40,766 bases of DNA, from assembly GCA_048498835.1 (NCBI GenBank), contig JBEHXF010000015.1, positions 1 through 40,766 of the forward strand, written 5' to 3'. Source of the DNA: Chlamydiota bacterium. GTDB taxonomy: Bacteria > Chlamydiota > Chlamydiia > Chlamydiales > SM23-39. Below, in pieces: positions 15,001 through 18,000 of this stretch. Within the stretch, counting starts at the first letter, position 1. Every line of letters starts with the position of its first letter. The position numbers are program-made.

Positions 15001-18000
15001 AAATAATGGAGTCATGGTTAGGAGCCTTGTTCTAAATTCGTTTGGGCGATTTCTGCCTCTCGTATGCGGTAAAGACGTTTTAGGTAGGCTTTTACCTCCG
15101 GACACTCTTTGATACTCTCGCGGTAGTGGACCCGCAGCTCTTCAATGCTTGCTGACATGCGGAGAGGCTGGGCTGCAATCTCAGCTTTATGAGGGAATTT
15201 GACATAGGCTCGGTAGGCTTTATTCATCCGGCGCAGCGAAATCGTCAGGAACAGTGCAGGAATGGAGAGAAGGGTGGAGAGGTAAAAAAGCTTTTTCTCA
15301 AAACCCTCCTTCATCAATCCTTTGATTTGGATGTCGCCAATCACAACATAATAAAGAAGCACAAAGAGAGAACACCAAAGGCCAATCAACGATAGAGTGA
15401 GAAGGATCGATCTTTGCTTGACGTAGGAAACATAAAAATAGAGGGCTGGGTAGGCCATGAGAGAGAAGAAAAATACGGACCATTGCAGCGAAGTGGGAGC
15501 AAAAGCGATGACCGAATTTGTCGACTCGTAAAACCAAGCAACCCAACTCAATGATAGATTAATAAAAAATAGAACTTTCCAGAATTCACGTTTTTTTAAT
15601 TCTTCATTTGTAAAAAAAGATTCTAATCGGATTGTATCAGTCATAACATTCTCCAAGATAAAATCCCTCGAAGATACAGAACCTATCCAAATAAAGCTAG
15701 TTCATTGGATAGGTTCTCGAGAAATTAACGAACGGCTTCGTAGGCTTCGATCACCTCGGCGACGCCAGGGCAAACATTCTCCTTCCACCGTTGATCTCCG
15801 CTTTTTAGACATTTGCGGATTTCGGTACCAGAGATGGCGTGGACAGAGGAATCGACGTCCACATAGTTGCGCTCGTAACCTACATCGCGGCCCCAATTGA
15901 CGCTATCGATGTTTGGGATGATCATGACTCGAGCTGCAATATTCATCTCTTTCATGCTTTTTTCAATCATCTCTTTGCGAACAGCCACAGGCCATGCATC
16001 CGTCTCCGTATCTCGGACAAAAATGAGAAGCGGGCGGTTTGGATTTTTCTGTCTGACGGCATCCATAATTGCCCAATGGCCCCGATGGAAGGGAGACCAA
16101 CGACCGACAAAGAGAGCATGAGGAACTGTCGGATCTGGTAAATTCATAGCGACAATGATCTTCTTCGCACTCTCCTTCACAGACTCTTCTGCCGTTTTGC
16201 AAATGACTTGCGCTTCGGTAGGAGCCTCATAAGGAGCAGAAATGCCAGTGAAAGATTTAATCTCTCCATTTAAAGCTTTCTTATACATTCCCTTCACATC
16301 GCGCTGAACGCAAACATCTAGCGGAGCGTCAACATAGACTTCGATGAATCGATAGCCCGCATCTTCAAAGGATTGCCTTGCCATGGCTCTCACTTCTTCG
16401 CGAGGGCTGACGACGGGAATCAAAACATAGTCAACCGATTGCAAAATGAGCTTGCCAATCTCGACGATTCTTCTTAGATTTTCTTTTCGATCTGCATCGG
16501 AAAACCCGAGATCTTTATTGATGGTTGAGCGAACTTCATCTCCATCGAGCAAAACGCTACCGGGAAAATGGACTTGCAATTCTTTTGCAATCGTGGTTTT
16601 TCCACTGCATGGCAATCCAGTAAACCAAACAGCTACTTTTTCAGCTCCGAAGAGGGAGCTGCATAAACAACAAAGAACAACTAGAAATCTCATATGCCTC
16701 CAGGGTTAAAATGGAGGGGCAGTTTAAAAGAATTGCTGACTTAAATTAAATGTTTTTTTACGAAGCGCGGAGAGAAGAGGATTTGCGAGAGGAAGAAATT
16801 GGAACCCGAGTCAACCAGTTGAGACTTGCAGCAGAAATCAATTCTTCGCATCCCAACATAAAACCAAAATTATCTAAAAAAATTCGGTTTGCTTCCATCT
16901 TCCCTTGAGCACAATTCGCCTCTAAAAAACGAATGACAAGCTCATCCATGTCGATCCATTTCCGACCGGATCGATCCCAATCACATCGGAATGCTCTCTC
17001 TTTCAAACATGGCGCTAACCAGTTGAGATTCAAAGTGAGATAGAAAGCAAATTCGCTACGCTCTTTAGAAGGTGGCAATTCGAGCAATTTAGCCATGACA
17101 ATCTCGCCATCCAATTCATGACACCGTTCGCCTTTCACCATCAAGAAACACTCATTCCTTCCCCTTGGCTTGTCCCACGTCTCCAAAAACTTTTTCTGAT
17201 AAACCGAGATGATTTGGAGAGGCTTTTTTTCTCGCCGCTGAACAACGACATTCGGAAAATTCTGCTGCTCTCTCTTTAGCCAAGCGGTGAAAAAAATGCC
17301 GTTTCGAAAGCAGTTTTGCAAGAGATCTACCGCAAGCTTTGAAATTCCTTGAGCCCCCAAAACTCGTTGTCCCTGAAGCCACTGGATTTCCATTGGGTAG
17401 AAAGTCGATAAATTGAGAGAGTAGGCATTCGATGCGGCGTGGAATAATAAATAGAAAAGATCAGAGCGACTAGTTTGGAGCAACTCGAGAGTTTGACAGC
17501 ACTGAAGCATATCCAGTTCTGAAACGATCAGGCCGCTGGGCATCGTAACTAAATTCAATGTAGCGATGTTCATACCCTAGTTTTTTGCCGCGAAGAATCT
17601 TAACCAACCCTTAAATATTTTTACACGTATTTACATTACCAATTGTAGTCTGATTCGTAGCCGAGCTCGATGAGGAGATCTCCGATTTCTTCTTTTGTGG
17701 CTATTTTATGCACTTCTTTGAAGTAGTCTTTCCAAGCACCTACTTTCCCCCTGAAAAAACTCCATCCTTTTCCAAAGTGGCGCTTATAGAGTTTTTTCAA
17801 CAAAATATCGGAATAAGGAAGATCTAACGCCTGAACTACCTTTCTCAATTCTCGCAAGGCTTCTCGGTCGCTTTCTACCCCTCCATGCGATCCCATCAAC
17901 TTGCCAAAATCGAGGACGCAACAAAGGGGAGATGTCAACCATCCCATGTAGCGTTGGGTTTGCCATCTCAAGCGCATTCGAATCATCGCCAGCAGCCTCT

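Follow-up and report, generated by a model that had tools for sequence, protein, structure and literature searches.

A chlamydial fusion of an APS kinase with a trimmed NMNAT-like domain is a putative minimal one-chain PAPS synthase

Can a single protein of 322 residues make PAPS in a bacterium whose genome shows no canonical ATP sulfurylase? The question is raised by a gene in the window analyzed here (contig JBEHXF010000015.1 of a Chlamydiota genome, 40,766 nt in full), in which an APS kinase is followed by a small HxGH domain, hereafter T. A preliminary description had proposed that the fusion alone makes PAPS, with T as the putative sulfurylase; its open reading frame and Pfam matches were recovered with the same scores. 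We regard the protein as a putative minimal one-chain PAPS synthase whose ATP sulfurylase would belong to a third, so far undescribed type. We consider this reading likely, and it gains support from the presence of T in the cysDN slot of some Nitrospirales and from its complementary distribution in 40 Dadabacteria-class genomes. Feature positions are collected in Table 1.

Table 1. Features of the fusion gene and its neighbors in the window
Feature	Position	Strand	Basis or remark
Fusion gene, 322 aa: leader, APS kinase and small HxGH adenylyltransferase domain (T)	15725..16693	-	Candidate one-chain PAPS synthase
GGAGG Shine-Dalgarno-like site	16697..16701	-	3 nt ahead of ATG, read from sequence
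Hydrophobic signal-like leader, 17 residues	16643..16693	-	Hydropathy heuristic
APS kinase domain, residues 18-183	16145..16642	-	TIGR00455 above cut-off, motifs, Foldseek
T domain, residues 185-322	15728..16141	-	Trimmed NMNAT-like HxGH nucleotidyltransferase, proposed ATP sulfurylase
GRWSPFHRGH motif, residues 197-206	16076..16105	-	Family conservation
VRD at end of strand 2 of T (holds R227)	16010..16018	-	Alignment and conservation
GRDVGY, residues 268-273; family motif GR-x-VGY	15875..15892	-	Family conservation
SGTEIR, residues 288-293; family motif S-[AG]-T-x-I-R	15815..15832	-	Counterpart of the SGTxxR PPi-site motif (passage of PMC3779200)
Protein of unassigned family between sulfotransferase and fusion	16758..17573	-	Paralog of 19457-20254, 36% over 89 aa
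Sulfotransferase with signal-like leader, likely PAPS consumer	17636..18481	-	PF00685 27.6 bits, cut-off 22
Glycosyltransferase-like protein with signal-like leader, overlaps sulfotransferase start	18459..19454	-	PF13524 26.2 bits, cut-off 25
Protein of unassigned family upstream of glycosyltransferase	19457..20254	-	Paralog of 16758-17573

Residues 18-183 are a canonical APS kinase. This half matches Pfam APS_kinase over residues 20-165 (174.7 bits), scores above the curated cut-off of TIGR00455 apsK (189.5 versus 138.7 bits) and is 36-48% identical to APS kinases of solved structure. The motifs typical of these enzymes (P-loop, DGD, GFS, DRxENxRR, SP and lid) are found at residues 26-33 (P-loop), 49 (LDGD), 62 (LGFS), 68 (DRKENLRR), 95 (VSP) and 132-158 (full lid). 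The AF2 model of the leaderless whole protein has a pLDDT of 95.3 and a pTM of 0.80. The top Foldseek matches of the kinase half are all APS kinases, with rmsd of 1.2-2.0 Å in most rows (1.3 Å for 2ofw), in agreement with the structural resemblance described earlier.

Both its sequence and its fold mark T as a trimmed domain of the archaeal NMNAT kind and not as a shrunken Sat. Modeled alone, it forms a single domain of 138 aa (AF2 pLDDT 96.0) that matches the archaeal NMNAT 1f9a (MJ0541) with Z 14.0 (rmsd 2.8, 128 aligned) and its best ATP sulfurylase, 1v47, with Z 9.8 (rmsd 2.9, 129 aligned); for the M. thermautotrophicus NMNAT 1ej2 the Foldseek TMq is 0.73. Profile E values are 1e-12 for NMNAT NF002243 versus 5e-4 for ATP sulfurylase TIGR00339. 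Pfam reports CTP_transf_like at residues 194-248 (24.8 bits) and ATP-sulfurylase (PF01747) at residues 283-317, under the cut-off (20.4 versus 24.3 bits); T searched alone reaches 24.1 bits over its final 35 residues only, and it has no PF01507 (CysD) match. In hhalign, T and Sat pair over 67 C-terminal columns (probability 91%, E 1e-6). Among viral models Foldseek found distant cytidyltransferase-like matches only (best E 2e-4), and in the ESM Atlas T falls in automatic 'cytidyltransferase-like' clusters that are 75-92% viral.

The GRxxPxHxGH, P-x-T-x-x-E-R helix start, GY and SxTxxR segments of T and archaeal NMNATs align, with positions 9-78 of the T profile corresponding to 1f9a 5-76 and positions 87-134 to 110-155. 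The stretch from strand 3 to the GY motif counts 8 residues in T versus 33 in NMNAT, and T is ~25 residues shorter in the region of 1f9a segment 77-109, which we take to hold the nicotinamide-stacking (nicotinamide-binding) helix. Residues 76-97 of T are without a strand in the monomer model. An internal deletion within Sat was rejected as the likelier origin of T, since NMNAT aligns over both halves and with far higher scores.

Motif conservation was counted over 405 distinct family members. G197, R198 and H206 are invariant and H203 is kept in 99%; HxGH and S-x-T-x-x-R as a whole are kept at 98-100%, the second position of the latter being Ala (82%) or Gly (17%). In GR-x-VGY, G268 and R269 are conserved in 99% and G272 in 100%, and position x is Gly in 73% and Asp in 9%. 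R227, which had escaped mention before, is 98% conserved and is matched by no residue of the aligned NMNATs; it is a candidate anion ligand. The motifs had been called invariant in a family of 17 proteins. This stands for G197, R198 and H206 and nearly so for G268-R269, but not for the Gly of SGT or H192 (<70%), and the family is far larger, with 516 clusters at 50% identity.

With Sat (PF01747, TIGR00339, PDB 1v47) T has in common the superfamily fold, HxxH, S-x-T-x-x-R, a G-R after the fourth-strand position and the proposed reaction; domain I, the GxxKxxD loop and QxRN are missing from it. In A. vinosum the QxRN loop holds the sulfate oxygens with Gln199 and Arg201, and the GRD-loop residues named are Gly295, Arg296 and Ala299-NH (passages of PMC3779200). 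The sulfate-binding Gln has no counterpart in the 405 members; T carries G-R-W-x-P there. Equivalence of the GRD loop to the GR and the Gly at +4 in T is argued from topology; as noted previously, hhalign leaves the two GRD motifs unpaired, matching Sat GRDH with VRDT of T and not with GRDVGY. The 'GRD echo' was rejected as evidence for a sulfurylase, its Asp being local to few members, and SGTxxR is common to NMNATs too and hence not diagnostic of Sat. The motif argument is weaker than first put, and the earlier picture of a stripped-down ATP sulfurylase is better replaced by that of a trimmed domain of NMNAT type.

The fusion as a whole resembles PAPS synthases (human PAPSS1/2, PDB 1x6v; Aquifex 2gks; chlamydial 545-600-aa fusions), in which an APS kinase is likewise joined to an HxxH-type adenylyltransferase. 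In PAPSS, as here, the kinase comes first in the chain. T differs from their sulfurylases in lacking QxRN, in forming a separate family whose members are also stand-alone or fused in reverse order, and in size (~138 aa versus three domains of ~380 aa, according to a passage of PMC10322725).

Members of the T family are found in phages, archaea and bacteria. Among the best 150 representatives, 70 are fused to an APS kinase, 55 with the kinase first and 15 with T first; counting only starred branches, a quick tree requires at least six changes for the former order and at least three for the latter. At 80 viral loci the APS kinase is fused to T in 9 cases, within 300 bp in 59, elsewhere in the locus in 7 and absent in 5; the corresponding numbers for 80 genome loci are 23, 27, 4 and 26, and 22 of these loci have no APS/PAPS gene nearby. 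Sulfotransferases lie near T in 24/80 genome and 25/80 viral loci (raw counts with no random-locus baseline), a CysQ-like neighbor in 17 T loci and APS reductase in 4. DUF2061 occurs near T in 32/80 viral loci; it is also part of a canonical cysQ-DUF2061-cysC-cysD operon in genome G332, and one of the five CysD genomes checked has it. Overall, the context points to sulfate activation. The substrate of the viral partner kinases is less sure, because about half of them (38/75) are short with a reduced lid. Sano/Salvo-like phage fusions (PHROG 10255 'kinase') have the same two-domain build with both halves matched, but their kinase is shorter and its lid reduced; their annotation goes no further than 'kinase' or 'hypothetical protein'.

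Two lineages show what T may replace; each represents one evolutionary event among kin, and the genomes are mostly MAGs without completeness figures. Among 61 Nitrospirales genomes, 59 have cysH, and in 54 cysD lies 6-1733 bp downstream of this APS reductase gene. T is confined to the remaining five, where it directly follows cysH; these genomes have no CysD, and the locus has no kinase. Since their CysH passes TIGR02055 APS reductase, it needs APS. In this clade, then, T sits in the cysDN position behind the APS reductase gene. T and CysDN (TIGR02039/NF003587 plus GTPase) thus occupy the same pathway slot, but CysD belongs to another fold family (PF01507) and needs its GTPase partner, whereas T is an HxGH domain and no CysN was seen in the loci read. 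Sulfurylase motifs are altered in 4/5 long Sat-CysC fusions of the T-bearing Nitrospirales, and also in 5/28 Sat frames of chlamydial genomes that lack T. The Sat domain of the T. denitrificans fusion (PDB 3cr8) is reported to be inactive.

In the Dadabacteria class (61 genomes), T is present in 40, none of which has Sat or CysD (39 have a PF01507 match); the 21 genomes without T comprise 15 with CysD, 2 with Sat and 4 with no PF01507 at all. In four T genomes titled as chromosomes, CysH and CysC are present while Sat and CysD are not. This distribution supports T as filling the missing-sulfurylase step in the 40 genomes. Across 50 T-bearing genomes, neither Sat nor CysD was seen in 36; the 14 that have Sat or CysD beside T include the chlamydial G159 (intact Sat-CysC) and G357 (intact motifs). 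For SAR11, a paper passage describes aprBA without sat or cysDN.

Context fixes a pathway, not a reaction, and T could belong to sulfate activation without being a forward sulfurylase: it might run mostly from APS + PPi to ATP + sulfate, use another oxyanion or serve as an APS/PAPS-binding helper. The lack of QxRN and the 14 genomes with a second enzyme agree with such roles. However, the conservation of HxGH and S-x-T-x-x-R is catalyst-like, the same chemistry serves the reaction in reverse, and the APS reductase of 40 Dadabacteria-class genomes would be left without a source of APS, so we consider this unlikely. We think it very unlikely that T adenylylates NMN (or another nucleotide or organophosphate), with the kinase 3'-phosphorylating the product or working apart. 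The closest sequence, profile and fold matches are indeed archaeal NMNATs, JGI labels some members 'nicotinamide mononucleotide adenylyltransferase', a Sano-like phage fusion gene adjoins a NADAR gene, and many viral kinases have the short lid. Yet T falls far under the NMNAT cut-offs (47.9 of 127 bits for NF002243, 36 of 181.2 for TIGR01527) and has the shortened segment before GY. Its contexts are sulfate genes, with no NAD-salvage family among 150 + 74 scanned neighbor proteins. A NadD-like gene is present elsewhere in this genome (as are PPAT-, HldE- and FAD-synthetase-like genes), an NMNAT-like gene apart from T is present in two of five archaeal genomes with T, and the cysH-T operon and Dadabacteria pattern would remain unexplained.

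The genome that carries the fusion agrees with T as a sulfurylase. As described before, it shows no canonical ATP sulfurylase or CysD (the PF01747 search returned only T itself, below cut-off, and there is no PF01507 match), and it has two SulP permeases; against the 7-8 sulfotransferases claimed, a count by PF00685 alone gives six. We think it very unlikely that T is incidental in this genome, with APS coming from the host or from a canonical Sat hidden in an assembly gap and the protein acting only as APS kinase. The assembly is in 88 contigs and 96.9% complete, an intact canonical Sat-CysC is present in congener G183 and both types occur in G159, but no APS kinase other than the fusion was found, Sat of chlamydiae is in most cases joined to CysC, the family-invariant T residues are all kept, and the chlamydial T genomes G301-G303 likewise show no Sat or CysD. 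The sulfotransferase/glycosyltransferase cluster described around the gene exists here, but these neighbors are not beside it in the three chlamydial relatives compared, in two of which it adjoins rml genes. No synteny was seen between the G183 Sat-CysC and the fusion locus, leaving an in-place swap in chlamydiae without support. No sequencing runs were listed for the locus.

The placement of GGAGG favors a start of the fusion gene that takes in the leader. Within the T family, leader-type segments are found in chlamydial-type members only. The leader scores 3.34 against a threshold of 2.2 in a hydropathy heuristic, not a signal-peptide predictor, and 218/993 soluble ORFs also reach that threshold. 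The signal-like segment had been raised as an objection to PAPS synthesis; we reject it, because the same kind of leader is seen in 19/28 canonical chlamydial Sat-CysC frames, and all six sulfotransferases of this genome score alike. That T is a third ATP sulfurylase and the chlamydial fusion is also exported with the sulfotransferases, with both the production and the use of PAPS located beyond the cytoplasm (periplasm, inclusion or host side), is a tentative and rather doubtful combination.

As a sulfurylase, T would bind ATP through HxGH and S-x-T-x-x-R and pass AMP to sulfate, giving APS + PPi, with the invariant arginines R198, R227 and R269 probably making a small-anion site instead of the Gln/Arg pair of Sat. 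The fused kinase would phosphorylate the 3'-OH of APS with a second ATP, pulling the unfavorable first step, and the PAPS may feed the sulfotransferases of the genome. T may have been derived from an archaeal-NMNAT-like domain by losing ~25 residues in the nicotinamide-stacking-helix segment. What the data show is the domain build, the fold, the family, its contexts and its complementary distribution; the substrate, the roles of single residues, the reaction direction in vivo and the destination set by the leader are inferred.

In full-text searches of the open literature, no paper came up that describes T as a sulfurylase, and no assay of T was found; passages of PMC2211403 and PMC10434257 had no bearing on it. 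In passages of PMC10322725 and PMC3779200, the ATP sulfurylases named are of two types, Sat and CysDN. A third type, ~130 aa long, would alter metabolic reconstructions in which a genome lacking sat and cysD is scored as unable to activate sulfate (40/61 Dadabacteria-class genomes), supply a partner for the many phage cysC genes, and offer mechanistic work and PAPS regeneration the smallest enzyme that makes PAPS. In the HxGH superfamily, it would also be a clean substrate switch by one-segment deletion. T would then be an ATP sulfurylase that arose anew on an NMNAT-like scaffold and fills the missing entry step of sulfate assimilation in a large clade of Dadabacteria and in one Nitrospirales clade.

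Residues 18–183 of the 322-aa fusion form an APS kinase (TIGR00455, 189.5 bits versus a cut-off of 138.7) with every motif block and the full lid; the Foldseek list for this half is filled by solved APS kinases, best 2ofw (rmsd 1.3 Å, 44% identity). The remainder, T (residues 185–322), is a compact HxGH domain in the predicted structure (pLDDT 96.0; 95.3 for the leaderless whole-protein model), and the Pfam figures of the preliminary description were reproduced. Residues 76–97 of T model mcc72da1196d2, with GRxVGY inside, have high confidence and no strand in the monomer; judging by the model, this segment may pair across subunits. 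We hold it to be quite probable that T makes APS for the kinase: T would convert ATP and sulfate to APS, and the fused kinase would turn APS into PAPS, supplying sulfotransferases. The fusion would act like a PAPS synthase, yet T lies outside the Sat, CysD and NMNAT families.

The source genome (96.9% complete) shows neither Sat nor CysD, as previously described: the sole match of the Sat family PF01747 is T itself, under the cut-off, and PF01507, the family with CysD and CysH, has no match. Its one APS kinase is the fusion. Both SulP genes were found again, the reported 7–8 sulfotransferases came to six by PF00685, and one gene belongs to the inositol-monophosphatase family (family-level assignment only). 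The sulfotransferase/glycosyltransferase (GT) surroundings of the fusion are present here; in genomes G134 and G153 it adjoins rml genes instead, and the neighbourhood is therefore local.

Coordinates of the fusion and of other features noted in the window and in other loci
Feature	Position	Strand	Remark
Fusion ORF, 322 aa	15725–16693	−	GGAGG directly 5' of ATG
Enzymes using ATP, PAPS or SAM with a signal-like leader	window 10928–11365, 15725–16693, 17636–19454; genome G000 contigs C6, C17, C18, C44; loci L233–L260		
Paralogous ORFs, no assigned function	16758–17573, 19457–20254		36% over 89 aa; flank GT-sulfotransferase pair; no third copy found in source genome
AbiEi/AbiEii type IV toxin-antitoxin genes	13189–14516, 26348–26983		one pair plus another AbiEi-like gene
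Tandem pair of MORN-repeat proteins	21526–24805		C-terminal domains uncharacterised
Short APS-kinase-like viral partner kinases	loci L019–L098; L001:5596–6333, L002:5602–6333		38/75 in L019–L098; ~120–160 aa, reduced lid
TrpD-like (glycosyl transferase family 3) gene	L141:6423–7478; loci L184–L221		constant in many Nitrospirales cys operons

Within the Dadabacteria class, T is present in 40 of 61 genomes (kin, not independent; completeness not stated), and none of the 40 has Sat (0/40) or CysD (0/40). A single PF01507 match occurs in 39 of them, with CysH motifs in all 18 fetched; in fetched T genomes a 335–346-aa ORF leads directly into cysH from its 5' side (CysP-like, under the cut-off, in the single one scanned). 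CysD occurs in 15 of the 21 T-less genomes (G434 and 14 in which cysD-cysN was read) and Sat in two, and four lack a PF01507 match; gene order in G448 is permease-sat-cysH. In four T genomes titled as chromosomes, CysH and CysC are present and both sulfurylases absent. T of this class stands alone, distant from sulfate genes, which accounts for 18 of the 22 genome loci where an APS/PAPS neighbour is absent. More widely (50 examined of 80 T genomes), Sat was found in seven, CysD in seven and neither in 36. Pelagibacter is reported to carry aprBA without sat or cysDN (PMC5069961).

Nitrospirales carry cysH in 59/61 genomes, and in 54 of these genomes cysD lies 6–1733 bp 3' of it on the same strand, in the order sulfite reductase-cysH-(GT3-like)-cysD-cysN. 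T is restricted to the remaining five, directly 3' of cysH; four of these loci were read at 6 kb and contain no kinase, and the CysH of T-bearing genomes passes TIGR02055, the APS-using type. The five (CysH identity 85–91%) are one clade and therefore represent a single replacement event. All five also have a long Sat-CysC at another site (loci L222–L226; genomes G334–G337, G357), which counts against T being necessary. T might be a pathway helper or the catalyst of another reaction, a reading we regard as very unlikely. Sulfurylase motifs are altered in four of these five Sat-CysC (e.g. GWDY, EPNY, GQDY instead of GRDH), which, to go by the motifs, are probably retained as APS kinases; that of G357 is intact. 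Altered motifs (QxRN/HxxH/GRD/SGT) also occur in genomes without T, in 5/28 chlamydial Sat frames (L249, L255, L258, L259, L260).

The closest known family to T is archaeal NMNAT (NF002243, E 1e–12); the profile of the T family reaches 1f9a at E 3e–17 and the first sulfurylase only at E 0.09. Foldseek against 1ej2 gave a TMq of 0.73, and VIA-align Z was 14.0 for 1f9a, 12.7 for PPAT and 9.8 for the best ATP sulfurylase. T is not a member of the NMNAT family, because it scores far under the family cut-offs and 33 residues of 1f9a are replaced by 8 (profile 9–78 to 5–76, 87–134 to 110–155). In NMNAT this stretch holds the tryptophan helix that stacks the nicotinamide. NAD-salvage families were absent among 150 + 74 neighbour proteins scanned (cluster representatives and adjacent singles, not every ORF), and action of T on an NMN-type acceptor seems very unlikely.

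Over 405 distinct T members, G197, R198, H203, G205, H206, R227, G268, R269, V271, G272, Y273, S288, T290 and R293 are near-invariant. The proposed 'SGT' motif stands in its Ser and Thr, with Gly in 17% of members, and the 'GRD' echo is local, Asp being found in 9%. In Sat, Gln199, Arg201 and Ala299-NH bind the sulfate oxygens, and Gly295 with Arg296 binds the ribose (PMC3779200); compared with that set, T lacks the sulfate-binding Gln, and its G268-R269-x-x-G272 is spaced like Gly295-Arg296-x-x-Ala299. R227 is new relative to NMNAT. We infer from sequence that the conserved G/R residues of T, together with R227, could resemble Sat's ligand set. Aligned by hhalign with 27 intact Sat domains (Prob 91%, E 1e–6, 67 columns), T again leaves the GRD motifs unpaired, Sat's GRDH falling on its VRDT.

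The T family extends far beyond the 17 same-build proteins first listed: at E 0.001 it takes in 516 clusters (50% identity), and at 1e–15 its profile takes in 3622/5646 candidates (90% clustering). Members are named 'cytidyltransferase-like', 'NMN adenylyltransferase' or plain 'adenylyl-sulfate kinase', and no published description was among the papers that full-text literature searches listed. The best 150 representatives comprise 55 kinase-first (K-T) fusions, 15 T-first (T-K) fusions, 57 stand-alone domains and 23 others. Starred branches of a quick, weakly resolved tree of 118 T domains require at least six K-T and at least three T-K label changes; the link to APS kinase was therefore gained or lost repeatedly. 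Thirteen phage records (Sano, Salvo, DLP6 and similar phages) carry relatives, as does PHROG 10255, and the two relatives that were translated are K-T fusions.

At least 478 viral loci carry T; of the best 80, 9 are fused, 59 have a kinase within 300 bp, 7 have one elsewhere in the locus and 5 have none; the figures for the best 80 of 215 GTDB loci are 23, 27, 4 and 26. Many of these loci are near-copies. Raw counts without a random-locus baseline place a sulfotransferase near T in 25/80 viral and 24/80 genome loci, CysQ-like genes in 17 loci and APS reductase in 4. That T is an incidental domain in the source genome seems very unlikely.

The short viral kinases, with their reduced lid, may have a different substrate. 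DUF2061, a small membrane protein adjoining kinase or T in phages, is the most frequent viral neighbour (32/80 loci), lies inside a canonical cysQ-DUF2061-cysC-cysD operon in G332 (L312, G332:C11), is present in 1/5 genomes tested, and is a candidate accessory of sulfate activation. In fifteen Chitinophagaceae loci (within L120–L178), T and a kinase share a conserved cluster with a sulfotransferase, an Asp/Asn beta-hydroxylase and tail-collar proteins, which points to a secreted peptide or protein as the target of sulfation. Archaeal loci L103–L119 often show, within surface-glycan clusters, a T-K fusion beside CysQ and an additional stand-alone APS kinase.

T was found in 4/300 scored Chlamydiota genomes (nine weaker matches span the HxGH half only) and Sat in 27/301. 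G159 carries both types, an intact Sat-CysC without a leader and a K-T fusion with one; the congener G183 carries a canonical Sat-CysC at a non-syntenic site. By a hydropathy heuristic that also scores 218/993 soluble ORFs as signal-like, such a start is present on the fusion, 6/6 sulfotransferases, the neighbouring GT and 19/28 canonical chlamydial Sat-CysC frames. By eye, the PPAT-, NadD-, HldE- and FAD-synthetase-like frames of the source genome have none; an AdoMet decarboxylase also has one. Of 48 full-length K-T representatives, the nearest, P0009, is alone in having such a start (by eye). Shared by the fusion and canonical Sat-CysC, the leader therefore tracks chlamydial sulfation enzymes of either type, and such leaders may be the mark of an exported sulfation system in environmental chlamydiae.
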